A stretch of 64,000 bases of DNA, from positions 2,902 to 66,901 of the forward strand of contig JAZSBL010000030.1 in NCBI GenBank assembly GCA_045602385.1, given 5' to 3'. Position numbers and translations under genes: made by a program. Source of the stretch: Eubacteriales bacterium (GTDB lineage: Bacteria; Bacillota; Clostridia; Oscillospirales; CAG-272). Below the pieces are notes generated by a model, which worked only from the letters and a program-made list of their open reading frames with translations, was not told where the DNA came from and ran no database searches. Below, in pieces: positions 60 to 51,483 of this stretch. How positions within the stretch are numbered: the first letter of the stretch is position 1; each line of letters opens with the position of its first letter.

Positions 60-2067
60 TATGGCACGTTCACTTTCCGAGCTTCAAAAGCAATATAACA
101 GCTCATCAAAGCCCGGCGGCCCCGGTGCGGGCAGAGGTCCCGGTATGGGCGGCGGTCACCGTGGCAGAGGCCCCGCAGGTATGGGCGGAAAGCCCAAGGA
201 CCTTAAAAAGGCAGTAGGCAGACTTCTCTCCTACGTGGGCAAATATAAGGTTCTCCTTGTTGTAGTTTTCATTTTTATGATGCTAAACACGGTAACCTCT
301 CTTGTCGGCGGATACCTTACAAGACCTATCGTTAACCGACTTACCGAATACGTCGGTCTTGAAGTCGATTCCGAAAGCCTTTCAAGCCCGATATATCAGG
401 CTCTTGATGGCGCCATCGTGTCGCTCAAGGACGGCGCGGTCGATCTCATAGGATCAATGGTGGGTGACGGCTTCAATCCCACAGCAACGGCGGTTATGTT
501 CTATATCGCATCGGCTCTGATAATTCTCGTCAGCATTTATCTTTTCACTATTCTCACGACCTATCTTCAGTCGAGAATAATGCTGACTATTTCACAGAAC
601 GCTATTGAAAAGATAAGAAATGACCTTTTCACCAAGCTCCAGAAGCTTCCCGTGCGCTACTTTGACACTCACCCGACGGGCGAGATAATGTCGCGCTTCA
701 CAAATGACGTTGATAATATCGACGTTATGTTCAACAACTCGCTTACAAGCATTGTTTCGGGCGTTATATCCCTTGTGGGTACGTTCGTATTCATGGTCAC
801 CACGAATATCTGGCTGACTATCATCACGGTTGTATTTATTCCCTTCTTCGCTATCGGCGGCGCAAAGATCGCAAGTGCATCCCGTAAGTATTATACGGGT
901 CAGCAGGCGGCTCTCGGTGCGGCAAACGGATATATCGAAGAAACAGTTACAGGTCAGAAGGTAGTAAAGGTATTCAACCATGAGGAGACCTGCTGTGAGG
1001 AGTTTGACATCCTTAACGAGGACCTCCGCGACAAGCAGATGAAGGCGCAGTTCTACGGCGGCATCATGGGCCCGATAATGCACAACACAAGTATGATAAG
1101 CTACTCCGTGACTATCGGTGTGGGCGGAATACTCATGGCAGCGGGTAAGCTTGACCCCGGCGCGCTCCAGCTCTTTGCGCAGTACTCAAAGCAGTTCTCA
1201 ATGCCGATAAATAATATCTCCCAGCAGACCGCAACAATTTTCTCGGCTCTTGCCGGCGCGGAGCGAGTATTTGCAGTCATGGACGAATCTCCCGAGCTTG
1301 CAGACAAGGAAGAATCCATCTCCATGCCCGATATGAAGGGCGACGTTATCTTTGAGGATGTAACATTCGGCTACAATCCCGACAAGGTGATCCTTAAAAA
1401 CATCACTCTTTACGCGCATCCCGGTCAGAAGATAGCATTCGTAGGTTCTACGGGCGCGGGTAAAACTACCGTAACAAATCTTCTCTCTCGCTTCTACGAC
1501 ATTGATTCGGGTAAGATAACTATTGACGGTGTTGATATTCACGACATCAAGCGCGATTCTCTCCGCTCCAATATCGCAATGGTTCTTCAGGATACATTCC
1601 TCTTTACAGGAACGGTTATGGAGAATATCCGCTACGGCAGACCCGATGCGACTGACGAAGAGGTAATCCAGGCGGCGAAGACCGCAAGCGCGCACAGCTT
1701 TATCATGCGACTTGAAAACGGCTACGACACCCTCCTTGAGGGTAACGGTGCAAATCTCTCGCAGGGTCAGCGCCAGCTTCTCAATATTGCCCGCGCGGCA
1801 ATTTCCAAGGCTCCCATTCTCGTTCTTGACGAGGCGACAAGCTCGGTCGACACAAGAACCGAGCGCCATATCGAGCACGGACTTGCGCGCCTTATGGCAA
1901 CAAGAACGACGTTCATTATCGCGCACCGTCTTTCCACCGTCCGCAACTCAAACGCCATTATGGTGCTTGAGCAGGGCGAGATAATCGAGCGCGGAACTCA
2001 CGAGCAGCTCCTTGAAATGAAGGGACGCTACTACGAGCTTTACACGGGCAAGCGCGAGCTTGACTAA
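49..2067 (+). CDS. ABC exporter, fused permease/ATPase (MDR/MsbA-like half transporter)
   Basis: 672-aa ORF with a TM exporter domain followed by an NBD: Walker A GSTGAGKTT, signature LSQGQRQ, Walker B ILVLDEATS, H-loop IIAHRLS. It has a Gly/Arg-rich N-terminal tail. Confidence 0.9.
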   Translation: MASNMARSLSELQKQYNSSSKPGGPGAGRGPGMGGGHRGRGPAGMGGKPKDLKKAVGRLLSYVGKYKVLLVVVFIFMMLNTVTSLVGGYLTRPIVNRLTEYVGLEVDSESLSSPIYQALDGAIVSLKDGAVDLIGSMVGDGFNPTATAVMFYIASALIILVSIYLFTILTTYLQSRIMLTISQNAIEKIRNDLFTKLQKLPVRYFDTHPTGEIMSRFTNDVDNIDVMFNNSLTSIVSGVISLVGTFVFMVTTNIWLTIITVVFIPFFAIGGAKIASASRKYYTGQQAALGAANGYIEETVTGQKVVKVFNHEETCCEEFDILNEDLRDKQMKAQFYGGIMGPIMHNTSMISYSVTIGVGGILMAAGKLDPGALQLFAQYSKQFSMPINNISQQTATIFSALAGAERVFAVMDESPELADKEESISMPDMKGDVIFEDVTFGYNPDKVILKNITLYAHPGQKIAFVGSTGAGKTTVTNLLSRFYDIDSGKITIDGVDIHDIKRDSLRSNIAMVLQDTFLFTGTVMENIRYGRPDATDEEVIQAAKTASAHSFIMRLENGYDTLLEGNGANLSQGQRQLLNIARAAISKAPILVLDEATSSVDTRTERHIEHGLARLMATRTTFIIAHRLSTVRNSNAIMVLEQGEIIERGTHEQLLEMKGRYYELYTGKRELD

Positions 2068-2083
2068 AGTGTCTGATAAGCAT

Positions 2084-2125
2084 AAAAAAGGCTACCCCGA
2101 AATCAGGGGGTAGCCTTTTGTGTTT
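2084..2125. terminator. Bidirectional rho-independent terminator between convergent genes
   Basis: Stem GGCTACCCC (2090-2098) pairs with GGGGTAGCC (2107-2115). An A-run lies upstream and a T-run downstream. Confidence 0.7.
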
Positions 2126-2134
2126 CTGATCAAG

Positions 2135-3091
2135 TTAAACCGTTTTTTGAATCCATTCGGCAATATCCGAAATGACCTCTTGTCCGATATGTTGCTCTAC
2201 GCCGTACTCTTGCTTTGCGAGCATAATATTGCCGTGTACCGAGGGCACGAATGCGTGATTCAAATTGTCGTACAGACGAAATTCTACGTTATCGCGATCC
2301 GACAAAAGCTGCTTATACGCATTAAAATCCCTCTCAACCGTAGCCTGAAAGTCCTTTTCGCCCTGCATAAAGAGCATCGGCTTTTTCGTCTTGCTCAAAT
2401 ACTCGGGTGCCGAATGCTCGCCCATTTCCTTGAAATAATACAGCGTCGCTCCGCCGCCTATCCTTTTTCTTTTCGCGTCGTCGTCTGAAAGATCATACAT
2501 TCCATCAAACATTGCGGAAAATTTAGCGTGTTGCTTTTTCATTATTTTTTGCACGAGTCCCTTTGAGGATCGCACGAGATCCTCCATCTGGTCTATCATA
2601 ATTTCTTCAAGCTTGCGGGGTGAACCTGCCATCATGATAAGTCCCTTATAATTTCCGCCCTTGTCATCAATTCGTGGAGCAAGCATAGCTCCCATGCTAT
2701 GTCCGATTATGAAAATATTTTCACGGTCAATGCGCGGATCGTTTTTAAGCATTTCAGTAGCAAGGATCGCATCCTCTATGGTCTCGGTTTTTACCGTGAC
2801 ATCCTTTTCCCTCAGAAGCTTGAATGCGTGAGCGAAGGTTCTTTTATCGTATCTTACCGATGCGATCCCGCTCTCCGCAAGACCGTCTGCCAGATCCTTG
2901 AAGGGTGTAAGCTTGCCTACCTTCTCGTCCATATTGCTGGCGCCCGATCCGTGCACCAAAACGACTGCGGGCACGGGTCGCTCTGCTCCACTCGGAAGTG
3001 TCAGCATGCCCTTCAGCGGATATTTCGTATCTTTTCCTATAATTATTTTTTCTCTTATCATAACATTCACTCCCAATAAATATTCTCTCAC
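2135..3091 (-). CDS. alpha/beta-fold hydrolase (esterase/peptidase S9-like)
   Basis: 318-aa ORF with nucleophile elbow GHSMGA, VLVHGSGASN near the N-terminus and a late NHAF histidine, the typical alpha/beta hydrolase layout. Confidence 0.8.
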   Translation of the reverse strand: MREYLLGVNVMIREKIIIGKDTKYPLKGMLTLPSGAERPVPAVVLVHGSGASNMDEKVGKLTPFKDLADGLAESGIASVRYDKRTFAHAFKLLREKDVTVKTETIEDAILATEMLKNDPRIDRENIFIIGHSMGAMLAPRIDDKGGNYKGLIMMAGSPRKLEEIMIDQMEDLVRSSKGLVQKIMKKQHAKFSAMFDGMYDLSDDDAKRKRIGGGATLYYFKEMGEHSAPEYLSKTKKPMLFMQGEKDFQATVERDFNAYKQLLSDRDNVEFRLYDNLNHAFVPSVHGNIMLAKQEYGVEQHIGQEVISDIAEWIQKTV

Positions 3092-3165
3092 TTAAAACAT
3101 ATCACAAAATTAGTTACTTGTATACATACCGTTGGTTGAGTTAATTCAATTCGTCAAAAAACATC

Positions 3166-3201
3166 GGAGCAACGACAAAAAAGATCGGCTTTTACAAGCC
3201 G
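3166..3201 (-). terminator. Rho-independent terminator after the 3213-3626 gene
   Basis: AGATCGGCTT (3172-3181) pairs with AAGCCGATCT (3186-3195), flanked by A6 and T6 runs. Confidence 0.7.
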
Positions 3202-3212
3202 ATCTTTTTTAT

Positions 3213-3626
3213 TTATCTGAAGCCGTCAATGACCGTCATTATCTCCTCAAGCTCCTCCTCGGTGAATACCGATTTATCGCCGTTGGAGATAAGTGTTATG
3301 CCGGACATATTCGTTTGTCCCGGATATGAGAGCATTATAGGGCCGTGAGTCACGGTCACCCTGTCGCCCGTATCATAGGAATCAAGCATTCCGCTCTCTA
3401 TCGGATACACCCACATAAGCACGCCGTGGTCGTCCATAAGCAATGCCCCGTTTTTATCCTTGCCGAAATAGAGTCTGCCGGAGGTCTTTCCCTCCTCTAC
3501 GGCTTCGTAGGATTCCCCCGTTGATGTATTGGCACCGTCCGCAGCATTTTCAGCACATGCCGAGAGCATAAGCAAGAATGCAAGGCAGGCGGCGACCATG
3601 CAAAATATAAATGTCCTTTTTTTCAT
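3213..3626 (-). CDS. small secreted lipoprotein, unknown function
   Basis: 137 aa. The N-terminus MKKRTFIFCMVAACLAFLLMLSAC has a signal peptide and a lipobox (LSAC). Confidence 0.6.
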   Translation of the reverse strand: MKKRTFIFCMVAACLAFLLMLSACAENAADGANTSTGESYEAVEEGKTSGRLYFGKDKNGALLMDDHGVLMWVYPIESGMLDSYDTGDRVTVTHGPIMLSYPGQTNMSGITLISNGDKSVFTEEELEEIMTVIDGFR

Positions 3627-3661
3627 GTTCGTCTACCTTCCTTGCAATTCATATTTGTCTT

Positions 3662-5635
3662 TTATCTTACTCTCTCTCCAAGAGGAGTTTCGGGGTCAAG
3701 GAATACAACTCTTACGGTCTCCTCACCCGATGCGAGAATCATACCGTTGGACTCAATGCCGCAAAGCGTTGCGGGCTTGAGGTTCGCCACAACGATAATT
3801 CTCTTGCCTATAAGATCCTCGGGCTGATACCACTTGGCAATACCCGACACTACCTGTCTTTGCTCGTAGCCGAGATCGATCTTAAGCTTCAACAGCTTCT
3901 TTGCCTTCGGTACCTTCTCACATTCAAGTATCTTTGCTGTGCGAAGCTCAACGTTCATGAAATCCTCGATGCCGATAAGAGCGCAGCCCTCGGGCTTTTC
4001 GGGAATAGCATCCGCCTTGGCCTTTGCCTCTGCCGCCTTCTTCTTTGCCTCCATCTCTGCCTCAAGCTCTGCAAGCATCTTGGCCTCGTCGATTCTTGCG
4101 AACATTACGCGTGAATCACCAACCGTATTACCTGCCTTGATAGCGCCGAACTTATCTGCCGAGCTTACACTGTCGTAGCTCTGAGCATCGGTCGCGAGAA
4201 GTGTCAATACCTCCTCTGCGGTCGCGGGAATAAAGGGCTTGAGAAGCACCGCTCCAAAGCGAATAGCTTCAAGAAGATTGTAGAGAACCGTTCCGAGTCT
4301 TGCTCTCTTTGTCTCATCCTTTGCAAGCGTCCAGGGTGTTGTTTCATCAATATATTTATTTGCGCGCGAGAGCATCTCAAAGATGCATTCAAGCGCGTCC
4401 GCGATGCGGAAGCCGTCCATATTCTTGACAACTCCCTCGTATGCCTTAACGCAAGCCGCCTTAAGCTCTGCGTCGATCTCCTCTGCCTCGCAAGGCTCCT
4501 GAATGACCTTGTCAAAATACTTCTTCTGCATATCAAGCGTACGCTTAACGAGGTTTCCGAGGTTGTTTACAAGGTCTGTATTGAATCTCTTGATTACGGT
4601 TTCATAGGTGATGCTTCCGTCGTTTGCAAAGGGCATCTCGGAGAGCGCGTAGTAACGGACTCCGTCAATACCGAAACGCTGTGCAAGCTCATCAGCATAA
4701 ATTACGTTTCCGCGGGACTTGGACATCTTGTCGGTGCCGAAGTTGAACCAAGGATGACCAAATATCTGCTTCGGGAGCGGAATATCAAGCGCCATAAGGA
4801 AGATAGGCCAATAGATCGTGTGGAAGCGGAGAATATCCTTTCCGATAACGTGGACGTCCGCGGGCCAATATTTCTTGAACTTTTCGCTCTGCTGTTCAAA
4901 GGACTTGTCGGGATTGTATCCGATAGCGGTAATATAGTTGGTAAGCGCGTCAAGCCATACGTAGGTCACGTGTCTGGGATCGAAATCTACCGGAATACCC
5001 CAAGTAAAGGACGTACGCGATACGCAAAGATCCTGAAGTCCTCCCTCGACCTTCAAGAAGTTGTTTACCATCTCCTTCTTGCGGCTCTCGGGCTGAATGA
5101 AATCGGGGTTCTCCTCAATGTGCTTAAGCAACCTGTCGGCGTACTTGCTCATCTTAAAGAAGTATGCCTCCTCCTCTGCTCTCTGCACGGGTCTGCCGCA
5201 GTCGGGGCACTTGCCGCCCTCTGCCTGAGTTTCGGTAAAGAATGACTCACAGGGAGTGCAATACCAGCCCTCATACTTTCCTTTATATATATCGCCCTGC
5301 TCGTAGAACTTCTTAAATATCTTTTTTACCGCCGCCTCGTGGTAATCGTCAGTCGTGCGGATAAAGTGGTCGTAGGACACGTTCATCTTGTCCCAAAGCT
5401 CGCGGATCTCACCTGCAACGCCGTCAACGTAAGCCTTGGGTGTGATGCCCGCCTCACGCGCGAGGTCCTCTATCTTCTGTCCGTGCTCGTCCGTACCCGT
5501 GCACATGAATACGTCAAAGCCCATCTCTCTTTTATATCTTGCCATAGCGTCTGTGGCGATAGCCTCGTAGGTATTGCCAAAGTGCGGCTTCTTGGATGCG
5601 TATGCAATTGCCGTTGTAATGTAGTACTTATTCAT
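3662..5635 (-). CDS. metG: methionine--tRNA ligase
   Basis: 657 aa. Class I motifs PHFGNTYE (HIGH-type) and KMSKS are present, with a CPDCG zinc knuckle and a C-terminal Trbp111/EMAP-like tRNA-binding domain (GIESNGMILA). Confidence 0.95.
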   Translation of the reverse strand: MNKYYITTAIAYASKKPHFGNTYEAIATDAMARYKREMGFDVFMCTGTDEHGQKIEDLAREAGITPKAYVDGVAGEIRELWDKMNVSYDHFIRTTDDYHEAAVKKIFKKFYEQGDIYKGKYEGWYCTPCESFFTETQAEGGKCPDCGRPVQRAEEEAYFFKMSKYADRLLKHIEENPDFIQPESRKKEMVNNFLKVEGGLQDLCVSRTSFTWGIPVDFDPRHVTYVWLDALTNYITAIGYNPDKSFEQQSEKFKKYWPADVHVIGKDILRFHTIYWPIFLMALDIPLPKQIFGHPWFNFGTDKMSKSRGNVIYADELAQRFGIDGVRYYALSEMPFANDGSITYETVIKRFNTDLVNNLGNLVKRTLDMQKKYFDKVIQEPCEAEEIDAELKAACVKAYEGVVKNMDGFRIADALECIFEMLSRANKYIDETTPWTLAKDETKRARLGTVLYNLLEAIRFGAVLLKPFIPATAEEVLTLLATDAQSYDSVSSADKFGAIKAGNTVGDSRVMFARIDEAKMLAELEAEMEAKKKAAEAKAKADAIPEKPEGCALIGIEDFMNVELRTAKILECEKVPKAKKLLKLKIDLGYEQRQVVSGIAKWYQPEDLIGKRIIVVANLKPATLCGIESNGMILASGEETVRVVFLDPETPLGERVR

Positions 5636-5706
5636 TTTGTCACCTTACACTGCGAATGGGCAGTGCCTTTCACAATTTACCGCTTATAATGTCACGGTTA
5701 TTAATC

Positions 5707-5735
5707 ATTATACCAAATCTAAAAATATTTTACAA
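5707..5735 (-). promoter_or_regulatory. Candidate sigma-A promoter for metG
   Basis: On the minus strand: TTGTAA, 17 nt, TATAAT. The leader to the AAGGTG RBS is about 65 nt. Confidence 0.5.
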
Positions 5736-5875
5736 TAGATATTTCAAAATTTCTGCGTTATTTTTGGAAAAGCTCCTGGTTTTTTGGCTTAAAGTAAATA
5801 ATAGTAATAATTTGCAAAAATAGGTAACAATGGAAATTATTAGGGTGTGTTTGTTAATTATCTATCACAGATTCT

Positions 5876-5891
5876 TGACAATTATTTGTCA
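5876..5891. promoter_or_regulatory. Inverted repeat TGACAA-N4-TTGTCA, candidate regulator site upstream of the BMC operon
   Basis: Perfect 6-4-6 palindrome TGACAATTATTTGTCA in the 515-nt intergenic region, about 80 nt upstream of the -35 of promoter P1. Confidence 0.35.
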
Positions 5892-5970
5892 GTGGCAAAT
5901 TTTTATAAATCACCCCAAAATTCGACGGCGCGATTTAGTGCATTTTTCACAGTACTCTTAAAAAAAGCTA

Positions 5971-5999
5971 TTGCAATTTAAAGAAAAATCTGCTATAAT
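5971..5999 (+). promoter_or_regulatory. Candidate sigma-A promoter P1 (extended -10) upstream of the BMC operon
   Basis: TTGCAA (5971-5976), 17 nt, TGcTATAAT (-10 at 5994-5999). Confidence 0.5.
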
Positions 6000-6084
6000 G
6001 ATGGCGTGAAAGTGTGTCTTGCGGTGCGCTTTGCGACAAAACGGGCGTTTTTTGCGCTCTTTTGCCGAAAAACGCAGCAAATTG

Positions 6085-6112
6085 TTGACAAGACCCACCG
6101 TGCAATTATAAT
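6085..6112 (+). promoter_or_regulatory. Candidate sigma-A promoter P2 for ackA and the BMC operon
   Basis: TTGACA (6085-6090), 16 nt, TATAAT (6107-6112). A small CTGCCG/CGGCAG hairpin lies in the leader at 6117-6133. Confidence 0.55.
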
Positions 6113-6153
6113 TTATCTGCCGAAATGCGGCAGCGGAAAGGAATCATGCAAAA

Positions 6154-7347
6154 ATGAAAATTCTTGTCATTAATGCAGGAAGCAGCTCGCTTAAATATCA
6201 GCTCTTTGATATGACAACGGGCGCTGTATTGGCCAGAGGCTTGTGCGAAAAGATCGGTCTTACCGGTGCTATCACTCATAAGCGTCCCGGCAAGCCTAAC
6301 TACGCAGAGGATTATCCTATGCCCACTCACAACGAAGCTATCGCTCTCGTTCTCAAGCTTCTTACGGATCCTGAGCTCGGAGTTATCGAAAGCGTCGATG
6401 AGATCAGCGCAGTAGGTCATCGCTTTGCACACGGAGGTAAGCTCAATAAGTCTTGTTTCCTTGGCGAAGAGGAGATCAAGTATATCGAGTCTATCATTCC
6501 GATCAACCCCCTCCACGGACCACCCGCGCTCAAGGGCGTTTCGGCTTGTAAGGCAGTCCTCCCGAACGTACCCCACGTAGGCGTATTCGATACGTCCTTC
6601 TATTCCAGCTTTGACGAGAAGGCATACATTTATCCCCTTCCTTATGAGTGGTATGAGAAGTACGGCGTTCGTCGCTACGGCTTCCACGGCACGTCGCACC
6701 GCTACGTATCCGCAAAGGCTTGTGAGTTCCTCGGCCTTGACTACAACAAGACAAAGATAGTTTCCTGCCACATCGGTTCAGGTTCTTCTATAACAGCTAT
6801 CGACTGCGGAGTTGCAGTTGATACATCAATGGGCTTTACCCCCCAGGACGGTCTTCCCATGGGAACACGCTGCGGCGGTATCGACCCCTCTATCGTTGAG
6901 TACGTTTGCAAGCAGAGCGGTATGACCGTATCCGAGGTAAACGACGCGCTCAACAAGAAGTCCGGACTTCTCGGAGTTTCCGGCGTATCCAACGACATGC
7001 GTGACGTCCGCGCAGCAGCCGCAGACGGTAACGCTCGCGCACAGCTCGCGGCAGATCTTCTTACACGCTATGCTAAGAAGATAATCGGCTCTTATGTGGC
7101 AGAGATGAACGGAATCGACGTTCTTATCTTCACAGCAGGCCTTGGCGAAAACGATGAGATCGCGCGCCAGGAGATCGGCGATAACATGGAATTCTTCGGC
7201 ATCAAGATCGACAGAGACGTCAATCTCAATGCTCCCAGAGGCGAGAACCTTGTTATCAGCACTCCCGACTCCAAGGTAAAGGTCGTTATCATTCCCACCG
7301 ACGAGGAATTCATGATCGCATCCGACACATACAACCTCGTCAAATAA
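6154..7347 (+). CDS. ackA: acetate/propionate kinase, first gene of the microcompartment operon (PduW-equivalent role likely)
   Basis: 397 aa. MKILVINAGSSSLKYQLFD N-terminus, GFHGTSHRYV and IIPTDEE motifs of the acetate kinase family. The gap to the next gene is 49 nt with no terminator. Confidence 0.93.
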   Translation: MKILVINAGSSSLKYQLFDMTTGAVLARGLCEKIGLTGAITHKRPGKPNYAEDYPMPTHNEAIALVLKLLTDPELGVIESVDEISAVGHRFAHGGKLNKSCFLGEEEIKYIESIIPINPLHGPPALKGVSACKAVLPNVPHVGVFDTSFYSSFDEKAYIYPLPYEWYEKYGVRRYGFHGTSHRYVSAKACEFLGLDYNKTKIVSCHIGSGSSITAIDCGVAVDTSMGFTPQDGLPMGTRCGGIDPSIVEYVCKQSGMTVSEVNDALNKKSGLLGVSGVSNDMRDVRAAAADGNARAQLAADLLTRYAKKIIGSYVAEMNGIDVLIFTAGLGENDEIARQEIGDNMEFFGIKIDRDVNLNAPRGENLVISTPDSKVKVVIIPTDEEFMIASDTYNLVK

Positions 7348-11667: not shown

Positions 11668-11668
11668 G

Positions 11669-12029: not shown

Positions 12030-12118
12030 TTTTCCCTTATCCAAACACAAAAATTAATCGGGAAATCCCGAATAATCTAAATTTTTAAAAATTTTTATCC
12101 AAAAAGGAGAATTTTACT

Positions 12119-12394: not shown

Positions 12395-12423
12395 TATAAG
12401 TCGAATCGGGAAAGTCCCGGGAC

Positions 12424-12453
12424 GTGTCCTGCCCGTATTCACGGGCGGGACAC
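12424..12453 (+). other. 12-bp GC-rich stem-loop after the shell-gene block
   Basis: GTGTCCTGCCCG (12424-12435) pairs with CGGGCGGGACAC (12442-12453), loop TATTCA, no U-tract. A small CGGGA-AAG-TCCCG hairpin lies at 12407-12419. Confidence 0.5.
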
Positions 12454-12560
12454 CCCGCACCCCTTAAAATATATCTCAAATTTTCGTATATCCGCGCTCA
12501 ATGACAGCTTTGAACGTCTTTATATGAAAATTTGCGAGAATTTCTGAAAGGAGTTCTATA

Positions 12561-13232: not shown

Positions 13233-13253
13233 TATTAAATGAGGTAATATAAG

Positions 13254-13514
13254 ATGTTAAGAGGAAAAGTAATAGGAAATATCGTATCTACGAATAAGCT
13301 TGACAAGCTCGTTGGCTTCAAGTTTCTTGAGATCCAGCTCATCGAGAACACGCAGCTGACCGACAAATACATAGTTGCGGTAGACCGCACTGTAAGCGCG
13401 GGAATCGGTGAAGAAGTTCTTATCACAACGGGAAGCGGAGCAAGAATGGCTCTTTGCGACGAGAACTGCCCTATCGACGCAGTTGTTGTCGGTGTTGTTG
13501 ATAAAAAACAGTAA
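13254..13514 (+). CDS. pduN: BMC-P vertex pentamer (EutN/PduN/CcmL family)
   Basis: 86 aa. MLRGKVIGNIVSTNK...FLEIQ...AVDRTVSAGIGEEVLITTGSGAR fits the EutN/CcmL fold pattern. Confidence 0.9.
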   Translation: MLRGKVIGNIVSTNKLDKLVGFKFLEIQLIENTQLTDKYIVAVDRTVSAGIGEEVLITTGSGARMALCDENCPIDAVVVGVVDKKQ

Positions 13515-13600
13515 TACGCCTGATCTCAAGCCGTTTTTAAGACTTGATATCATTAAAAATCAGCACAAAACCGCATGTGAGCGGTGAAAGGTATACGCGA

Positions 13601-14923: not shown

Positions 14924-14974
14924 AAAAGACTAACAGAACTTATTTACATAGACAAAGAAAGGTATTGCACAAAA

Positions 14975-15520
14975 ATGTATCAGGCAGTTGGTGTAATTGA
15001 ACTTAAAAGTATATCCAAGGGCATCGAGGCTACAGATGCCGCCCTCAAAAGCGCAGGCGTAACTCTTGTTTCGGCTCGCGCCGCTTGTCCCGGTAAGTTT
15101 GAGATCATTCTCACGGGTACAATTTCAAACGTAACAAGCGCGGTTGACCACGTAAAGAGCCGCTTTGAGGATAAGCTTGTTGACGTATCGGTAATGGGCC
15201 GCATTGACGAGCAGGTAATTACCGCTCTCTTCGGTACTGTTCTTTCCGAAAAGAAAGGAAGCCTTGGCGTTATCGAGACCTTCTCCGCCGCTTCCATTAT
15301 CAAGGCTGCGGATATCGCAGTCAAGACCGCGCGTGTTGAGATATTCGAGCTTCGCGCATCCCGCGGCATGGGCGGTAAGGGCATCTGCCTTTTGACCGGT
15401 GAGGTTGGAGACGTAACAGCCGCAGTTGAGGCAGGCGCGCAGCACGCAAAGGATCAGGGCGTTTTCTGCAACTCCTCCGTCATAGCAGCTCCCCACGAGC
15501 TTCTCTGGAATCAGATCTAA
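14975..15520 (+). CDS. pduT: BMC-T tandem-domain shell protein (PduT-like) with Cys38
   Basis: 181 aa with two BMC domains (VGVIELKS... and LGVIETFS...). Cys38 sits in ARAACPGKF, the position I recall as the [4Fe-4S] pore ligand of PduT. Confidence 0.85.
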   Translation: MYQAVGVIELKSISKGIEATDAALKSAGVTLVSARAACPGKFEIILTGTISNVTSAVDHVKSRFEDKLVDVSVMGRIDEQVITALFGTVLSEKKGSLGVIETFSAASIIKAADIAVKTARVEIFELRASRGMGGKGICLLTGEVGDVTAAVEAGAQHAKDQGVFCNSSVIAAPHELLWNQI

Positions 15521-15560
15521 TTAGTCACTCCACGGCAACGTCTGTTTGGAAGTTTTCGCT

Positions 15561-15706
15561 CAAGCCTTTTTCAAAAGGCTTGGCTGAGCCGCCGAGCACG
15601 GCGGTCGCTCGTCGCAACGAGCGAAACTCCTAATCGTTCGAAAGCGCCACGAGGGGTGAATTTCGGCACTGCCGAAAGAGGGGAACACACAAGTGGGGGT
15701 TCCCCT
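15561..15706 (+). other. Highly structured GC-rich intra-operon spacer with at least five consecutive stem-loops
   Basis: Hairpins at 15561-15582, 15589-15604, 15605-15624, 15662-15676 and 15679-15706, within a 227-nt gap between pduT and the GRE gene. Confidence 0.5.
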
Positions 15707-15747
15707 GTCCAAAACACCCGCTAACATTCTCTCCAAAGGAGATTAAC

Positions 15748-18279: not shown

Positions 18280-18299
18280 GGGGATGCGAGGGGATGCGA

Positions 18300-18332
18300 C
18301 GGGGAAACCCTTTTAGAAAAGGGTTCTCCCCG
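18300..18332 (+). other. Stem-loop of about 14 bp after the GRE gene, preceded by a 10-nt tandem repeat
   Basis: CGGGGAAACCCTTTT/AAAAGGGTTCTCCCCG pair with one bulge. GGGGATGCGA occurs twice at 18280-18299. Confidence 0.5.
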
Positions 18333-18403
18333 AACCCCTTCCTAAAACTTCAATAAGAATTCTTTTTTAGAAATTATAGCAAATCTTGAGAAAGGAGAAA
18401 GGC

Positions 18404-19201
18404 ATGAATAAGGATATTTATTCTGTTGGCGGAAGAATATTTGATATACAGAGATATTCTCTGCACGACGGACCCGGGATCAGAACCATCGTCTTTCTCA
18501 AGGGCTGTTATCTTCATTGCCGTTGGTGCTGCAACCCCGAGTCGCAGAGCTACAACATTGAAGAAATGACTCGCGCAGGCAAGCGCGAGATAATGGGCCG
18601 CGACGTGACCGTTGGCGAGCTTATGGACGAGCTGGCGCAGGACCGCAGATATTACGAAAGAAGCGGCGGCGGAATCACCCTTTCGGGCGGCGAGTGCATG
18701 GCTCAGCCCGACTTTGCCGAGGCGCTTTTGCGCGCCTGCCACGATTACGGCTTTAATACAGCGATAGAAACTACCGCGTGCGCGAGCCGTGAGGTAGTTG
18801 AACACCTTTTGCCCCACGTTGATTATTTCCTGATGGATATAAAGCACATGGATTCAAGAAAGCACGAGGAATTCACGGGCAAGGGCAACGAGCAGATACT
18901 CGAAAACGCAAAATTTATTGCAGAAAATGCAAGAAATCTTATAATTCGCGTACCCACAGTTCCCACGTTTAACGCAACGCCCGACGAGATCGCGGCGATC
19001 GCGCGATTCGCGTCAAGCCTTGACGGTGTAAGAGAGCTTCACCTGCTTCCCTACCATAGGCTTGGTCAGGACAAATACACAGGACTTGGCCGCCCCTACC
19101 CGATGGACGGCATTGAGCCACCAACCAATGAGCTTATGGCAGACCTACTCAAGGTCGCAAAAAGAGCCGCCCCCAATCTGCACGTGCAAATAGGAGGCTG
19201 A
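18404..19201 (+). CDS. glycyl radical enzyme activating enzyme (radical SAM), PflA-length
   Basis: Radical-SAM cluster motif CYLHCRWC and GGITLSGGE. ATG 18404 has an AAGGAG RBS; the ORF-track start at 18386 is TTG. No ferredoxin-like CxxCxxCxxxC insert is present. Confidence 0.9.
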   Translation: MNKDIYSVGGRIFDIQRYSLHDGPGIRTIVFLKGCYLHCRWCCNPESQSYNIEEMTRAGKREIMGRDVTVGELMDELAQDRRYYERSGGGITLSGGECMAQPDFAEALLRACHDYGFNTAIETTACASREVVEHLLPHVDYFLMDIKHMDSRKHEEFTGKGNEQILENAKFIAENARNLIIRVPTVPTFNATPDEIAAIARFASSLDGVRELHLLPYHRLGQDKYTGLGRPYPMDGIEPPTNELMADLLKVAKRAAPNLHVQIGG

Positions 19202-19202
19202 T

Positions 19203-19733
19203 ATGAGAAAAATATTATTGATTTTTTTATCGACATTTTTAGTTGCTTCATTATTTGTTTCTTGTGAGAAAACAACAGTACCTACCGCAACGGACTCTCT
19301 GACCGAGCTTCAGATCGAAAAACAAACGGAAAGCAACACTGCTGGTTCTACTGTGAGTGTCGGAGAATCCGACAGCCCTCTTGAAGGCTCTGCAAATTCG
19401 GAAATTGATAGCTTATATGGCACTTATTTCCGCAAAAACGACGATTCTCGACCCATTGCCGATGTTTTTACCATAACGCTGAATGCCGACGGGACCTATA
19501 ATTATTATGAAACCATGATAAGCAGTCACTTGGGATTCGGTAGGTATACCGTTGACGGTAATATAATTACAATTAGGGACGACGATATTCCGACCCTAAA
19601 CGGCAGCAAAACATATACTTTTAAATTTGAATACCGCGACGGGAAGCTTATATTTCTTGCTTCCGAGTCAGATAATTTTATGTACGTAAATCTTCCTGAC
19701 GGCGCGGAATTTGAACGCGCGCCACAAGAATAA
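19203..19733 (+). CDS. secreted lipoprotein of unknown function embedded in the BMC operon
   Basis: 176 aa. MRKILLIFLSTFLVASLFVSC has a signal peptide and lipobox. The ATG is 1 nt after the activase TGA and the GGAGG RBS lies inside the activase 3' end. Codon use is visibly more AT-rich. Confidence 0.6.
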   Translation: MRKILLIFLSTFLVASLFVSCEKTTVPTATDSLTELQIEKQTESNTAGSTVSVGESDSPLEGSANSEIDSLYGTYFRKNDDSRPIADVFTITLNADGTYNYYETMISSHLGFGRYTVDGNIITIRDDDIPTLNGSKTYTFKFEYRDGKLIFLASESDNFMYVNLPDGAEFERAPQE

Positions 19734-19760
19734 TTACACCTTTACGGAGGTTAAGTTAAA

Positions 19761-20132
19761 ATGTCACAGAATTTTGAATTTCAGGATAAAATGCGAATAG
19801 TACAGGAGCTTGTGCCGGGTCGACAGATCACACTTGCTCACATTATCGCAAATCCTGACCCCACGCTTTATCAGAAGCTTGGCCTTGACCCCAAGCTTGA
19901 TTATGAAAAGGCAGCTATCGGTGTTCTTACCGTCAGCCCCGCGGAAACCGCTGTTATTACTGCGGACATAGCCCTCAAATCCTCGGGCGCAGACCTCGGA
20001 TTTGTTGACAGATTTTCGGGCACACTCATAATCACCGGTAAGGTTGCAGAGGTCGAGGCGTCATTCTCCGCAATCACGGAATATTTCAGAAACACTCTCA
20101 AATTCTCCGTTTGCGAAATGACAAGAACGTAA
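19761..20132 (+). CDS. pduU: circularly permuted BMC shell protein (PduU/EutS-like)
   Basis: 123 aa. VPGRQITLAHIIANPD, AIGVLTVSPAETAVITADIALK and GFVDRFSGTLIITG match the PduU/EutS pattern. Confidence 0.85.
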   Translation: MSQNFEFQDKMRIVQELVPGRQITLAHIIANPDPTLYQKLGLDPKLDYEKAAIGVLTVSPAETAVITADIALKSSGADLGFVDRFSGTLIITGKVAEVEASFSAITEYFRNTLKFSVCEMTRT

Positions 20133-20191
20133 TACATACCAATAACAAATGACATTGTTCCATCAAGCCTCTTTTGAAGTTTTTTGGAATT

Positions 20192-20221
20192 CTTAAAACC
20201 TTTTTGCAAAAAGGTTTTAAG
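20192..20221 (+). other. Perfect 14-bp palindrome between pduU and pduV
   Basis: CTTAAAACCTTTTT-GC-AAAAAGGTTTTAAG. Confidence 0.5.
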
Positions 20222-20235
20222 CCGTCGGAGACAAA

Positions 20236-20667
20236 ATGAAAAAATTGATTTTGATGGGCAGAGTTGCCGCAGGTAAGACCACTCTGACTCAGGCCTTGAA
20301 GGGTGAGCAGATACACTACTGCAAGACCCAATATATAAATTACATGGACACGATAATCGATACTCCCGGAGAGTACACCGAGGTACATACTCTGGCGGCC
20401 GCGCTTGGAGTCTACTCCTACGAGGCTGACGTTATCGGTCTTGTAATAAGCGCAAACGAGCCCTTTTGTGTATTCCCGCCCAACTGCACACACCACGTCA
20501 ACCGCGACATTATAGGCATTATTTCGGGAATAGACAAGCCCGATGCAAACGTTCCGCTTGTCGAGCGATGGCTCTCAAATTGCGGAGTAAGCCCCGAAAA
20601 AATGTTTTACATCAGCTCGTATACGGGCGAGGGACTTGATAAAATTATCGCATATCTTAACGACTAA
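20236..20667 (+). CDS. pduV: EutP/PduV-family small GTPase
   Basis: 143 aa. P-loop GRVAAGKTT, then DTPGEY, with the size and order typical of EutP/PduV. Confidence 0.85.
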   Translation: MKKLILMGRVAAGKTTLTQALKGEQIHYCKTQYINYMDTIIDTPGEYTEVHTLAAALGVYSYEADVIGLVISANEPFCVFPPNCTHHVNRDIIGIISGIDKPDANVPLVERWLSNCGVSPEKMFYISSYTGEGLDKIIAYLND

Positions 20668-20691
20668 AATCAAATTGACGGAGGAGACGCT

Positions 20692-21483
20692 ATGTCTGCA
20701 ACCAAGACGATCTGCTTTGCCAACAACAAGGGCGGAAGCGGAAAATCAACCACCTGCGCGAATATCGGATATTCGCTCTCAACTCTCGGTAAAAAGGTCC
20801 TGCTTATCGACGCAGATATGCAGATGAACCTGACCTTACAGTTCTTTGACGACGAGCAGTCGCTTGAAATGGCAAAGAGCCAAAAGAATATTTACGTGGG
20901 TATTGTGGAGCAGAGAGATCTCACCGATTTTGCAAGAGCTACCGAGTATGAAAATCTCGACCTCATTCCCTCCTCTACTCTTATGAGCGGAATCGAGTTC
21001 CAGCTCTTTACCAAGTGGCAGCGCGAGTTCATTCTCCGTGAAGGTCTTAAAAAGATCAAGGAGTCGGGAAAATACGACTACATACTCATAGACGCTCCTC
21101 CGACACTTGGTTGCTGGGCAATGAACATTATGTGCGCGTCCGACTTCCTCGTAATTCCCGTTGAAGCGTCGCCCTGGGGACTCTTCGGACTTGCGAACAT
21201 GTTTGAATTCTATGAGCAGGTCAAGCTCATCTCCCCCTCGCTTGAGCTGATGGGTATCGCAATCACCAAGGCAAGCGAGCGCAAGAACTATTTCAAGCAG
21301 ACGATAGAAACGCTTTCGTCACTTGAAAACGTAAGGCTTTTTGAGTCGATAATCAGAGTTGACTCAAATATCGAGTGGTCACAGGACAACTCAAAGCCCG
21401 TTATGGTCTATAAGAAATCCAGCCGCGCGGCGGGTGAATATATGGAAATGGCAAAGGAGATTTTGAAATATGCCGATAGGTAA
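20692..21483 (+). CDS. ParA/MinD-superfamily ATPase (McdA-like by context)
   Basis: 263 aa. Deviant Walker A NKGGSGKST, A' LLIDADMQ, Walker B YILIDAPP. It starts 24 nt after pduV with a GGAGGA RBS, so it is co-transcribed with the BMC genes. Confidence 0.9.
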   Translation: MSATKTICFANNKGGSGKSTTCANIGYSLSTLGKKVLLIDADMQMNLTLQFFDDEQSLEMAKSQKNIYVGIVEQRDLTDFARATEYENLDLIPSSTLMSGIEFQLFTKWQREFILREGLKKIKESGKYDYILIDAPPTLGCWAMNIMCASDFLVIPVEASPWGLFGLANMFEFYEQVKLISPSLELMGIAITKASERKNYFKQTIETLSSLENVRLFESIIRVDSNIEWSQDNSKPVMVYKKSSRAAGEYMEMAKEILKYADR

Positions 21484-21895
21484 GGACAGCATTACAAAAA
21501 GAGTAGCCAAGCCGGCTGCGCCGGAGGCAAAAGCGGCAGAGCCCAAAGCTCCCGCAAAGAAGACCACAGCCCCCAAGGCAACCGCTAAAAAGGAAGAAAA
21601 TATAGCCCCCGAGCTTGTGGCAACCACAGCGGCGGCTCCCAAGAAGGCTCCTGCAAAGAAGGCAGCCACCACAACCGCAAAGAAGCCTGCAACGACATCT
21701 AAATCCACAACTGCAAAGAAACCTGCAGCTAAAAAGACCACCGCTTCAGAAAAGCTTACACCTCCTACCGCGGTTGAAACAACCGTACTTGCAAACATCT
21801 CCCCCGAAACCGTAAAGGCGGTTATCGGACACGAGGAAAACCGTGGATTTGAGAAGGTACAGGTAGGCGAAAAGATGCCCGTGCATCTTCTTTAA
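21470..21895 (+). CDS. Lys/Ala/Pro/Thr-rich, predicted disordered basic protein (candidate ParA partner/adaptor)
   Basis: 141 aa. An AAGGAG RBS lies about 10 nt upstream. It overlaps the ParA-like gene by 14 nt. I counted 25 Lys against 13 acidic residues. AKKx/KKPA-type repeats fill residues ~15-95 and the last ~45 aa are less biased. It ends just before the operon terminator. Confidence 0.65.
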   Translation: MPIGKDSITKRVAKPAAPEAKAAEPKAPAKKTTAPKATAKKEENIAPELVATTAAAPKKAPAKKAATTTAKKPATTSKSTTAKKPAAKKTTASEKLTPPTAVETTVLANISPETVKAVIGHEENRGFEKVQVGEKMPVHLL

Positions 21896-21907: not shown

Positions 21908-21946
21908 AAAAGGGACAAAGCGCATAGCTTTGTCCCTTTTTTTATT
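21908..21946 (+). terminator. Rho-independent terminator ending the BMC operon
   Basis: AGGGACAAAGC (21911-21921) pairs with GCTTTGTCCCT (21927-21937), followed by T8. Confidence 0.8.
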
Positions 21947-22006
21947 TAAATTGCGATTTATCGGGAACTTCATGTCTACAAGTTACCATTTAAATACGCT
22001 TTGCGC

Positions 22007-22094
22007 CGTAGGGGTCGACGTCCTCGGCGACCCGCCTACATGGGATATAATTTAACTTTACGGCTACGGGCCGCCGAGGACGTCGGCCCCTACG
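22007..22094. repeat. GC-rich inverted repeat (28-nt arms), MITE/REP-like element
   Basis: CGTAGGGGTCGACGTCCTCGGCGACCCG (22007-22034) matches the reverse complement of 22067-22094 with 2 mismatches. The loop is 32 nt and AT-rich. The 9-nt direct repeat TACGCTTTG lies at 21995-22003 and 22109-22117. Confidence 0.6.
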
Positions 22095-22152: not shown

Positions 22153-22181
22153 TTGACAATGATGCGGTTATATGATATAAT
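22153..22181 (+). promoter_or_regulatory. Consensus sigma-A promoter of the metal-resistance operon
   Basis: TTGACA (22153-22158), 17 nt, TATAAT (22176-22181). Confidence 0.65.
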
Positions 22182-22184
22182 AAC

Positions 22185-22210
22185 AACAGTTGAACAATTG
22201 TTCAACTGTT
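22185..22210. promoter_or_regulatory. 12-2-12 palindromic operator (ArsR/SmtB type)
   Basis: AACAGTTGAACA-AT-TGTTCAACTGTT is a perfect inverted repeat immediately downstream of the -10 and contains the TGAACA/TGTTCA core. Confidence 0.65.
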
Positions 22211-22229: not shown

Positions 22230-22589
22230 ATGTCACACGATAAAACAAACATTCCACTTTGTGTAACGCACGAGGCGCATCACGAGATAATCGACCGCAT
22301 AGAATTACCCGATGACGAGCATTTCTTTGAGCTTGCCGAGTTTTTCTCGGTGATCGGGGACAGCACGAGAATAAAGATACTTTATCTTCTCTTTGAGGGT
22401 GAAATGTGCGTATGCGACATCTCCGAAAAGCTCTCTATGAGCATGTCGGCTATATCGCATCAGCTCCGAGTGCTTAAAAACTCACGTCTTGTCAAGTACC
22501 GCAAAGAGGGCAAATCGGTCCTCTACTCTCTTGACGACGACCACGTAAAAACGATAATCAACATGGGCGTTGACCATATCAACGAATAA
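22230..22589 (+). CDS. ArsR/SmtB-family metal-sensing repressor (CadC-like)
   Basis: 119 aa. wHTH STRIKILYLL...CVCDISEKL...ISHQLRVLKNSRLV...GKSVLYSL with a CVC alpha3-type metal site. Confidence 0.9.
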   Translation: MSHDKTNIPLCVTHEAHHEIIDRIELPDDEHFFELAEFFSVIGDSTRIKILYLLFEGEMCVCDISEKLSMSMSAISHQLRVLKNSRLVKYRKEGKSVLYSLDDDHVKTIINMGVDHINE

Positions 22590-50378: not shown

Positions 50379-51403
50379 TTAAATTATCTCGGCAAGCGCC
50401 TCGATATCCTCTTTTGTCGTTGCCCAGCTTGTGCAGAAGCGCACGGCGCAGTGCTTCTCGTCGACTCTCTCCCATATCTCAAATCGAACAAGGGGCGAAA
50501 GATCGGCGATCTTCTCGTCCGAAAGGATGATAAACTGCTGATTTGTCGGCGATTTCTTAAAGAAAGTATATCCCTTTTCTGCAAACAGACACTTTAAGTC
50601 CTCGGCGCGATCGATCGCATTTTTACTTATCTCAAAATACAAATTATCGGTAAAAAGCGTGTCGAACTGAACGCTAAGCAGTCTTCCCTTTGCCAAAAGC
50701 GCGCCATTCTGCTTGACCGTTGTGAAAAAATGCCTCGGCGCATTATTGTGTGTGAAGACCACCGCCTCACCGCAAAGCGCGCCTACCTTTGTGCCGCCGA
50801 TGTAAAAGACGTCGCAAAGATTTGCAATATCACGGAGCGTAACGTCACTCTCACGGCTCATAAGTCCGTATCCAAGCCTCGCGCCGTCGATAAAAAGCGG
50901 AATGTCATGTCGGCGGCATAGCGAGTATATCTCCTCAAGCTCTGCTTTGGCGTATATCGTGCCATATTCGGTCGGATACGAGATGTAGACCATTCCGGGG
51001 ATACCATATGCTCGTGCGCCCCGTCGGCGTAGAAGGAAGAAATAAGCACCTCTACGTCTGCGGCCTTTAATTTGCCGTCATAGCCCGGAACAGTCAACAC
51101 CTTGTGACCCGAGGCCTCGATAGCTCCCGCCTCGTGTGCGCTGATATGGCCGGTCGTAGCGGCAATAACGCCCTCATAATTCTTGAGCATCGAATCTATC
51201 ACTATTCTGTTGGTCTGCGTACCGCCGGTAAGGAATCTCACGTCCGCGCCCTCGCGCCCAACCGCCGCGCGTATCTTCTCTCTCGCGATCTCGGTGTATT
51301 TATCGTTGCCGTATCCGGGACAGGGCTCCATATTGGAATTAACAAGCGCCTCCAGGATCTTAGGATGCGCGCCCACGTTATAATCACATTCAAAAGATAG
51401 CAT
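50379..51403 (-). pseudogene. low-specificity threonine aldolase / beta-eliminating lyase, disrupted by a 1-nt frameshift
   Basis: The N-terminal half (51403 down to about 50995, ...ADGAHEHMVSPE) and the C-terminal half (from 50993, MVYISYPTEYGTIY...GGTKVG) are contiguous in homologues but lie in different frames. One extra A at GGAATGG (minus strand, ~50990-50996) would restore the frame. Confidence 0.75.
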
Positions 51404-51483
51404 AATGCCTCCTGTTATAATCACTAAAACAACTTTAAATATATAATATCAAAAATTGATCCCAAAGTCAAGCCAAATACAAC

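Follow-up and report, generated by a model that had tools for sequence, protein, structure and literature searches.

Among the closest described systems to the gene pair analyzed here, a ParA-type ATPase gene overlapped by a small adaptor gene at the end of a bacterial microcompartment (BMC) operon, are the McdAB systems of carboxysomes. The pair lies in 64,000 nucleotides of an Eubacteriales bacterium (contig JAZSBL010000030.1, positions 2,902 to 66,901 of the forward strand), a stretch referred to below as the window, and an earlier reading made from its letters alone (hereafter the sequence-only reading) had proposed that the two proteins play the McdAB role for a catabolic microcompartment. 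In Halothiobacillus neapolitanus, McdB needs only its first 20 residues, where Lys7 lies in a short helix, to bind McdA and to stimulate the release of McdA from DNA, and both activities are lost without them (PMC12139897). Binding of McdB to the carboxysome is driven by a C-terminal aromatic residue with acidic residues nearby; in Synechococcus elongatus McdB, replacement of the native Trp by Tyr gave near-wild-type positioning and replacement by Phe a weaker association, and in H. neapolitanus McdB neither substitution rescued positioning (PMC11321042).

For microcompartments other than carboxysomes, ParA (PF01656) was listed among the ancillary Pfams of BMC loci by Axen et al. (2014), and other BMCs were not mentioned by MacCready (2020). 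Section 2.9 and Fig. 8f of MacCready et al. (2021) describe McdA- and/or McdB-like genes in or beside four non-carboxysome BMC operons, the McdB-like proteins having a C-terminal Tyr within the last four residues, and Fig. 4 of Basalla et al. (2024) names operons for 1,2-propanediol utilization (PDU) and for microcompartments associated with glycyl-radical enzymes (GRM), with Tyr or Phe in the last five; as presented in these sections, the putative GRM and PDU McdB-like proteins therefore have Tyr or Phe in the last 4–5 residues (PMC11321042, PMC8359340). A 2026 study reported that positioning of the Salmonella Pdu BMC is independent of ParA, MinD, and heterologous McdAB, and called for further work (PMC12866334). 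As the sequence-only reading supposed, we found no experimental characterization of a ParA-type positioning system for any metabolosome in the literature up to 2026. To our knowledge, the PduV filament idea of 2010 is the sole proposal for the spacing and inheritance of catabolic microcompartments.

With a probability of roughly 60%, we propose that the pair in the window is an McdAB-like, ParA-type positioning module for a glycyl-radical (fucose/rhamnose) microcompartment. The McdAB-like role put forward by the sequence-only reading gained from conservation of the pair in 37/37 BMC loci and from its adaptor-like layout, but the idea itself had already been published (2014, 2021, 2024); the arrangement is known so far only as a prediction from sequence for GRM and PDU operons, and the proposal was right in kind without being novel as an idea. 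What we add here are definitions of the ATPase family and of the adaptor motifs, protein-level selection on the small open reading frame (ORF), strict synteny in 37 species, and homologous pairs in cultivable gut genera, often unlinked from BMC genes.

The ATPase and its overlapping partner

The ATPase gene (20692..21483, plus strand) encodes a 263-aa ParA/MinD-family protein (Pfam AAA_31 2.5e-52, CbiA 1.7e-18). It begins 24 nt after the PduV gene and, as read from the sequence, has its own ribosome-binding site, GGAGGAG (20680..20686, plus strand), 5 nt upstream of the ATG; a deviant Walker A box, K13-GGSGK18-ST20, lies at 20728..20751, preceded by N12 (NKGGSGKST), and includes the signature lysine. 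The spacing, the presence of a ribosome-binding site, and the Walker A box had been described correctly in the sequence-only reading. The Walker A, A′, and B residues, including D40, D42, D129, and D134, are invariant in alignments of 16 and 22 family members, and the ATPase is apparently catalytically competent. An AlphaFold2 (AF2) model of the protein (predicted local distance difference test score, pLDDT, 84.6; predicted template modeling score, pTM, 0.88) superposes on ParA/Soj structures with template modeling (TM) scores of 0.83–0.89 and on Cyanothece McdA with 0.82–0.84; given that these ranges overlap, the fold does not discriminate between the two. The best sequence matches in the Protein Data Bank (PDB) were 8ray (6e-34, TM 0.88–0.89), Helicobacter pylori Soj (6e-23), and Thermus thermophilus Soj (2e-21).

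Among 1.8 billion cluster representatives that we searched, the ParA family is tight and isolated: the nearest outgroups were one 50%-cluster representative at 61% and single sequences at 50%, 45%, 43%, and 42%, and the remaining matches were ordinary ParAs at 31–39% identity. The best identity was 41% among plasmid records (in a record of 2.6 Mb) and 36% among phage records, where the PHROGs match was to a generic ParA family only, and we rejected a plasmid or phage origin on this basis. Two further candidates were put aside: P0211 (357 aa), which had looked like a ParA-partner fusion and is an assembly artefact with an internal duplication, and P0248 (43% identical), which appears chimeric, joining an N-terminal half like that of the family to a C-terminal half like that of Soj. 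The family carries a signature, R222-VDSNIEWSQD-232 in the window protein (21355..21387), with the family-wide form R-x-D-S-x-[IV]-E-W-[SA]-Q-D. This segment (residues 225–234 of the model) is the sole poorly modeled part of the protein (pLDDT <50), and conserved basic residues stand near it (K193, R197, K198, K202, K241, K242, and R245).

The partner gene (21470..21895, plus strand) overlaps the ParA gene by 14 nt, its start reading ATGCCGATAGGTAA across the ParA stop, and the ParA coding sequence contains its ribosome-binding site, AAGGAG (21454..21459, plus strand), placed 10 nt ahead of the ATG. The two genes are thus predicted to be translationally coupled through their overlap, joining the ParA to a small, basic, largely disordered adaptor. 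The 141-aa product has a pI of 10.0 and contains 25 Lys, 2 Arg, 13 Asp plus Glu, one Phe, and neither Trp nor Tyr, for a net charge of +14; Ala, Lys, Thr, and Pro make up 63% of its residues. The overlap, the ribosome-binding site, the lysine excess, and the near absence of aromatics all agree with what the sequence-only reading had counted. A 135-aa antisense ORF (21391..21798) was discarded as a low-complexity shadow.

We detected 359 homologs of the adaptor at E<=1e-3, and the best 120 of these were used for all alignment counts; they are 100–152 aa long, nearly all cover the full query, and only one has a Pfam domain. Three blocks are conserved, separated by Lys/Ala/Pro/Thr tracts that differ in length through in-frame indels. 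The first is the basic N-terminus, residues 1–14 (MPIGKDSITKRVAK; 21470..21511, plus strand), which is identical in 97 of the best 120 homologs and whose core, x[VI]G[KR]xS[IL]x[KR], persists in distant Lachnospiraceae partners. ParA/MinD partners generally engage their ATPase through a basic N-terminal peptide. The second block is a mid motif at residues 42–57 (EENIAPELVATTAAAP; 21593..21640, plus strand), to which we assign no role; its form E(K/E)NIAPELVATxAAAP is near-invariant in most of the clade and gone in the most divergent members. The third, the C-terminal block (residues 101–141; 21770..21892, plus strand), is clade-specific, with the consensus V(D/E)TxVLANxSPETVxAVxGHxE...EKVQxGxKMPx(H/F/Y)LL, and includes a short amphipathic helix, PETVKAVI. 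It ends in the tail M136-PVHLL-141 (21875..21892, plus strand), which has the family-wide form [ML]Px[H/F/Y]L[LM]. At tail position −3 the best 120 homologs have His (84), Phe (30), or Tyr (6), and in the window adaptor Glu134 stands five residues ahead of His139.

An AF2 model built from the 120-sequence alignment had a mean pLDDT of 53.5, with helices only at residues 8–11 and 112–119, suggesting that the adaptor is essentially disordered, as first proposed from its composition, and that it is without a ribbon-helix-helix or other DNA-binding fold; the candidacy of the partner as a ribbon-helix-helix or centromere-binding protein was dropped on the same model. The reading frame shows the mark of purifying selection, the conserved blocks having much more variation at the third position of their codons than at the other two: codon-position entropies at positions 1, 2, and 3 were 0.15, 0.12, and 0.80 for codons 6–14, which lie beyond the overlap, and 0.62, 0.42, and 1.39 for the C-terminal block. 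Together with its intactness in every genome of the clade scan described below, these values indicate that the small ORF is a real, conserved protein-coding gene.

Linkage to the operon and the wider family

We scanned one genome per species using patterns drawn from the window's own clade, so that the scan is silent on more distant relatives. It recovered 38 species-level genomes, all of them uncultured Clostridia, Eubacteriales, or Oscillospiraceae metagenome-assembled genomes, mostly from animal guts or feces. The adaptor ORF was intact in 38/38 (93–151 aa), preceded in every locus by a ribosome-binding site AAGGAG or CAGGAGG, and its start was ATGCCGATAGGTAA in 36/38, the other two differing by single bases. 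By tblastn, the adaptor stands directly behind a ParA gene (73–98% identical) with overlapping start and stop in 37/37 loci with upstream sequence, and PduV precedes ParA in 36/36 loci that reach that far. Further upstream, and where contigs extend, the order of the BMC gene, glycyl-radical enzyme (GRE) activase, GRE, BMC-T, PduS, EutN, phosphotransacylase (PTAC), and BMC-H genes is kept. The 3′ neighbors of the pair differ, being ArsR and a P-type ATPase in some loci and other genes elsewhere, and it is this variability that assigns the ParA-adaptor pair to the operon.

In the window the operon comprises 19 same-strand genes, from 6154 to 21895. It opens with acetate kinase, a class II aldolase of the fuculose/rhamnulose-phosphate type, aldehyde dehydrogenase, and Zn alcohol dehydrogenase; continues with four BMC-H-type shell genes, a PduL-type PTAC, an EutN pentamer protein, a PduS-like flavoprotein, a shell protein with two BMC domains (scored as BMC-T), an 843-aa GRE, and the GRE activase; and closes with a 176-aa lipoprotein-like ORF, a 123-aa BMC protein, the PduV/EutP GTPase, the 263-aa ParA, and the 141-aa adaptor ORF. 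By gene content it is classed, after Axen et al. (2014), as a GRM5-like locus of predicted fucose/rhamnose use. The PduV/EutP-family small GTPase (20236..20667, plus strand; PF10662 1e-45, TIGR02528 1e-38) lies directly upstream of ParA and is a second putative positioning NTPase of the operon. A single intrinsic terminator (21908..21950, plus strand), with a 14-bp stem (21908..21940) containing 6 G-C pairs followed by a T run, closes the operon after the pair, where the sequence-only reading had placed it at the end of roughly 20 genes. The pair is thus predicted to be co-transcribed with the shell, core, and PduV genes, and so to be made when the organelle is made.

The absence of a ParB gene and of an obvious parS also stood. 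No ParB domain was found in any ORF of the 64-kb window, and no second ParA; the parS sequence TGTTNCACGTGAAACA was matched once in the window, with 3 mismatches and at a site within the GRE gene, and chance alone predicts 1.5 such matches. An Rfam scan of 5.5–23 kb of the window returned nothing above noise.

Outside the window's clade, an outgroup profile search returned many 263-aa ParAs, 62–70% identical to the window ParA. Their sources are Lachnospiraceae and further Clostridia, among them Robinsoniella peoriensis and Blautia sp., the latter represented in 140 blocks of the collection and on contigs as long as 3 Mb. Almost all of them are followed by a basic, low-complexity ORF of 61–216 aa, with overlapping stop and start, that has only two features in common with the window partner: the N-terminal core x[VI]G[KR]xS[IL]x[KR] and the tail [EDK][LM]Px[YFH]L[LM]-COOH. 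Across this deep divergence, only the two ends of the adaptor are conserved. We collected 96 unique partners selected on these N-terminal and tail motifs, so that the tail [LM]Px[YFH]L[LM] in 96/96 reflects the selection; their median net charge is +9.5, Trp occurs in 1/96, and the commonest tails are ELPVYLL, KMPDFLL, and ELPIYLL, the Lachnospiraceae partners having Phe or Tyr at position −3 in nearly all cases. The 216-aa homolog of R. peoriensis (L042, 10779..11429) contains about a dozen tandem EPVKKA repeats, which shows that a much longer linker is compatible with unchanged ends. Separately, a 50%-identical ParA with a partner starting VSVGKASIARAV (L051, P0244; 1468..4258) is found on a 4.3-kb contig beside a PemK toxin and an integrase of phage type, and the ParA-adaptor module may occasionally travel on mobile elements.

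Linkage of these more distant pairs to BMC or deoxy-sugar genes takes several forms. In L050 the genes run GRE, activase, BMC, PduV, ParA, and partner; in L044 and L045 the order BMC-T, DeoR, ParA, partner, and iron-containing alcohol dehydrogenase (Fe-ADH) ends a Lachnospiraceae GRM5 locus; and in L127 the genes BMC-BMC-PduV are followed by two unrelated genes and then the pair, which lies 3 kb from the end of that operon (1291..6950). The species of L127 is also represented by L124, L109, and L130, with a ParA pair 95–99.5% identical among the four loci; in the latter three ParA is separated from the TetR gene by an inserted 9.5-kb block of sugar ABC-transporter genes, which places the BMC genes just beyond the 10-kb flank, so that counts of stand-alone copies made from 10-kb flanks are upper bounds. 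The pair is followed by an Fe-ADH related to that of the L044 BMC locus in the stand-alone loci L042 and L049 (70–74% identity) and in L129 and L065 (69%). Partner-less ParAs adjoin FGGY sugar-kinase genes in L048 and L066 and are directly followed by an AraC-type regulator in L062, L064, L066, and L071 (Pfam-checked in L066, with a similar regulator ORF in the others). In L048 (10001..10789) such a ParA is directly upstream of an FGGY kinase (rhamnulokinase) and RhaA, with PduC, the large subunit of B12 diol dehydratase, 8 kb on, and in L066 (9968..10789) directly upstream of the AraC-type regulator and an FGGY kinase. Shell or PduV genes were nearby in 13/23 informative ParA clusters at 90% identity and in 5/13 at 85%, in a sample biased towards the window's clade. 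Given that BMC loci make up less than about 1% of a genome, adjacency that recurs in such differing arrangements greatly exceeds chance.

Several other features of the window were recorded. The 176-aa ORF between the GRE activase and BMC genes (19203..19733, plus strand) has a signal-peptide/lipoprotein-like N-terminus and, as its only Pfam hit, a weak NlpE-like match; it is sporadic in relatives, present in L002, L003, and L015 (40–53% identity) and missing from the closest relative, L001. The 103-nt spacer between the 123-aa BMC gene and pduV contains a perfect 30-nt palindrome (CTTAAAACCTTTTTG/CAAAAAGGTTTTAAG; 20192..20221), which could form an RNA stem-loop setting expression of the PduV-ParA-adaptor operon tail; in the closest relative these two genes are just a few nt apart. 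A GC-rich 28-nt inverted repeat (22007..22034 and 22067..22094; 93% complementary, arms 32 nt apart) is unique within the window and occupies part of the AT-rich interval that separates the operon terminator from the arsR promoter, and the region 22007..22094 had no significant Rfam match. Just ahead of the genes for an ArsR/SmtB regulator (22230..22589) and a heavy-metal P-type ATPase, the stretch 22153..22210 comprises a sigma-70 promoter with perfect elements (TTGACA, 17 nt, TATAAT; TG upstream of the latter) and, behind it, a 26-nt palindrome that is likewise perfect (AACAGTTGAACAA/TTGTTCAACTGTT) and is probably the operator of the ArsR/SmtB repressor. On the minus strand, two overlapping ORFs (50379..50993 and 50858..51424) each correspond to half of a beta-eliminating lyase family protein (PF01212), likely a frameshifted gene or a sequencing error.

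Proposed mechanism and competing explanations

We infer that the pair binds both a cargo and the nucleoid. In the mechanism that we propose, ATP-bound ParA dimers would coat a cellular matrix, most likely the nucleoid, and adaptor residues 1–14 (MPIGKDSITKRVAK) would dock on the ParA-ATP dimer and trigger ATP hydrolysis and release. The C-terminal block, ending in [ML]Px[H/F/Y]L[LM], would be the cargo-binding end that grips the outside of the BMC shell, with the variable Lys/Ala/Pro/Thr tract serving as a flexible, multivalent tether. Adaptor-coated BMCs would then deplete ParA locally and climb the resulting gradients as in a Brownian ratchet, a movement that would keep the BMCs apart and distribute them to daughter cells; PduV, encoded directly upstream, may join the same process.

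Several observations weigh against this positioning role. Binding of the pair to shell proteins and to DNA, and of the two proteins to each other, is in each case predicted, and the adaptor is without detectable homology in Pfam, NCBIfam, PHROGs, or PDB profile searches. At the key tail position the window adaptor has His139 instead of Tyr, Phe, or Trp. The sequence-only reading had looked to McdA-like or orphan ParAs rather than Soj or plasmid ParAs for the affinity of the ATPase; distance from plasmid and phage ParAs was what we found, but by sequence the ATPase is nearer Soj-type ParAs than the solved cyanobacterial McdA (Cyanothece McdA, 6non and 6noo, 9e-15, versus 6e-34 to 2e-21 for ParA/Soj). 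Moreover, the Soj segment PRNVRLSE(A/C)PS, which carries the DNA-binding Arg (Arg189 of Bacillus subtilis Soj), is replaced in the family by RVDSNIEWSQD, where an invariant Glu (Glu228) takes the place of that Arg. With the Soj-type Arg replaced, nucleoid binding, if any, must use other basic residues, and the seven conserved ones near the signature could form the DNA-binding face. Lastly, although the pair is present in all related BMC loci, the sequence-only reading's premise that it belongs to such loci holds only in part: pairs with ParAs 62–70% identical are common away from BMC genes in Lachnospiraceae, many being BMC-free within 10 kb, including that of Robinsoniella and most of 80 metagenome loci, and no related gene of any kind lies within 10 kb of the Blautia-type pairs, L046, L047, or most human-gut metagenome loci. 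Because of these stand-alone copies, a BMC cargo for the family as a whole is something we infer and do not demonstrate.

These copies also feed the best-surviving alternative, which we nonetheless regard as unlikely: that the two genes form an orphan ParA/adaptor module that serves Clostridia for general purposes and whose tail binds a ubiquitous target, such as an FtsZ-binding protein, and not the shell, its placement in BMC operons being secondary, or, alternatively, that the clade-specific helix couples BMCs to that ubiquitous target. An FtsZ-binding protein comes to mind because E-[LM]-P-x-[YF]-L-L resembles what we take to be the FtsZ C-terminal peptide, D-I-P-x-F-L-R, a resemblance that is a lead and not a test. 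The same N- and C-terminal adaptor motifs do recur in pairs with unrelated neighbors, and the block VLANxSPETVxAVIGH is confined to the BMC-embedded, Oscillospirales-type clade, so that the shell-specific part might be that block rather than the tail. Division or cell-wall genes occur within 10 kb of a few stand-alone loci (FtsW and a penicillin-binding protein in L046; FtsEX, PcsB, and MreB in L047; a SPOR amidase in L048), but they differ each time and are several kb off, whereas association with BMC or deoxy-sugar genes is seen in no fewer than 5 different arrangements, and a division or housekeeping role would be odd at the end of a substrate-specific catabolic operon in 37/37 loci.

A related and somewhat more doubtful possibility is that the adaptor is a mechanistically distinct class, in which the H1-like tract binds the nucleoid and the [ML]Px[Y/F/H]L[LM] tail, similar to the FtsZ C-terminal peptide, hooks a target. 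If this were true, a ParA system would govern how metabolosomes are spaced and inherited in gut Clostridia, cultivable Blautia and Robinsoniella among them, and it would depart from McdAB in the identity of the DNA-contacting partner and perhaps also by a coupling to the divisome. That the adaptor is a new class, as the sequence-only reading had allowed, is not demonstrated and is probably incorrect, since many relatives have Tyr or Phe at position −3, in agreement with the signature published for McdB-like proteins outside carboxysomes.

DNA binding by the Lys-rich tract is a possibility raised by its composition, and in its stronger form, which we consider improbable, the adaptor would itself be the nucleoid binder, the histone H1-like Lys/Ala/Pro tract sticking BMCs to DNA and ParA modulating or resetting the tether. 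This would suit the net charge of the proteins (+14 in the window, median +9.5 over the 96 members) and an ATPase without the Soj-type DNA-binding Arg motif, and the sole database matches to the adaptor are composition-level ones to Hc2/H1-like DNA-binding proteins (E 0.0015–0.009, far below cut-offs). Set against this, the tract ranges from near-absent in the 61-aa partners to its extent in the 216-aa protein, a few partners are near neutral (L052, L083, L036), and the ATPase retains several conserved basic residues at the places where H. pylori Soj presumably contacts DNA. Furthermore, H. neapolitanus McdB, whose N-terminus is also basic, alone does not bind DNA (PMC12139897).

Very improbable is an internal role, in which the adaptor would be a BMC scaffold or cargo condenser like CsoS2 or CcmM and ParA would act in assembly or in a maturation step that depends on nucleotides; such a role would suit a basic protein of a BMC operon that is repetitive and disordered and has an amphipathic helix (residues 112–119) reminiscent of an encapsulation peptide, yet the overlap with ParA is strictly kept and the N-terminus invariant even in loci without nearby BMC genes, and no known BMC scaffold is paired with a ParA. 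Largely refuted is the explanation as a DNA partition cassette (a type Ib-like ParA with a small centromere-binding protein) left by a plasmid or integrative element, for which the ParF/ParG-like layout of a small ParA and then a small protein with a flexible basic N-terminus, the integrase and PemK toxin beside P0244, and N-terminal helix-turn-helix extensions in some 35–45% relatives could be cited, given that the partner has no predicted fold, ribbon-helix-helix or other, that there is no parS-like repeat array, that the flanking 64 kb are ordinary chromosome, that identity to plasmid or phage ParAs never exceeds 41%, and that synteny with the BMC operon holds across 37 species.

As an McdAB-like positioning module, the locus would be a concrete, sequence-defined candidate for a glycyl-radical metabolosome. 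Its motifs are searchable (R.DS.[IV]EW[SA]QD in the ATPase; an x[VI]G[KR]xS[IL]x[KR] start and an [ML]Px[YFH]L[LM] tail in the adaptor), and they place the system in cultivable gut genera, where it is testable. If confirmed, ParA-based organelle positioning would reach from carboxysomes to the metabolosomes of the gut microbiota, and the adaptor would supply a short peptide with which proteins could be tagged for delivery to the outer face of such shells.

Comparison with known systems

The plasmid systems ParF/ParG and delta/omega of pSM19035 resemble the pair in combining a small ParA with a small partner, which in those systems stimulates the ATPase through a flexible, basic tail at its N-terminus; in contrast, the window partner is without a ribbon-helix-helix, the context is chromosomal, and the ATPases are of low similarity in sequence (delta 1e-14, ParF 1e-9). 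Soj/ParA-Spo0J/ParB-parS provides the best sequence and structure matches to the ATPase, which is of the same size and likewise has no N-terminal extension, but here there is neither ParB nor parS, the partner is not a ParB, the PRNVRLSE segment is replaced, and the gene belongs to a catabolic operon instead of an origin-proximal soj-spo0J locus. PduV, a Ras-like GTPase proposed to move PDU microcompartments, is also encoded at the 3′ end of metabolosome operons, and its position directly upstream of ParA here suggests that both may serve organelle dynamics; unlike ParA, it has an unrelated fold (PF10662) and is present in many BMC loci without a ParA pair.

The H. neapolitanus alpha-carboxysome McdAB system is similar in its ParA-type ATPase with a classical KGGxxK[ST] box, in having no ParB/parS, in a small and almost fully disordered adaptor with a basic N-terminus encoded directly downstream inside the organelle operon, and in a short anchor motif conserved close to the C-terminal end; H. 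neapolitanus McdA has the signature lysine, and H. neapolitanus McdB itself is monomeric, about 95% disordered, and encoded just downstream of McdA in the cso operon. The differences are that the cargo here would be a catabolic glycyl-radical metabolosome of a Gram-positive anaerobe, that the window adaptor is without the invariant C-terminal Trp of McdB and has the tail [ML]Px[H/F/Y]L[LM] rather than a Trp-acidic motif, and that its tract is an H1-like one of Lys, Ala, Pro, and Thr with no detectable homology to McdB, its function being predicted from the genes.

The published PDU and GRM McdA/McdB-like genes match the pair in GRM locus type and gene order. The parts of the published text that deal with those genes do not describe the two adaptor motifs (N-terminal and mid), the signature of the ParA, or the many stand-alone copies, and the window protein departs from them in having His at the aromatic position. 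In the adaptor family, however, Trp is likewise missing from all but one of the 96 members, many members have an aromatic residue in the last 4–5 positions with an acidic residue nearby, and most end ELPxYLL or MPxFLL. Given this fit to the published Tyr/Phe signature, the family, compared by description, probably belongs to the same group as the published GRM and PDU McdB-like genes.

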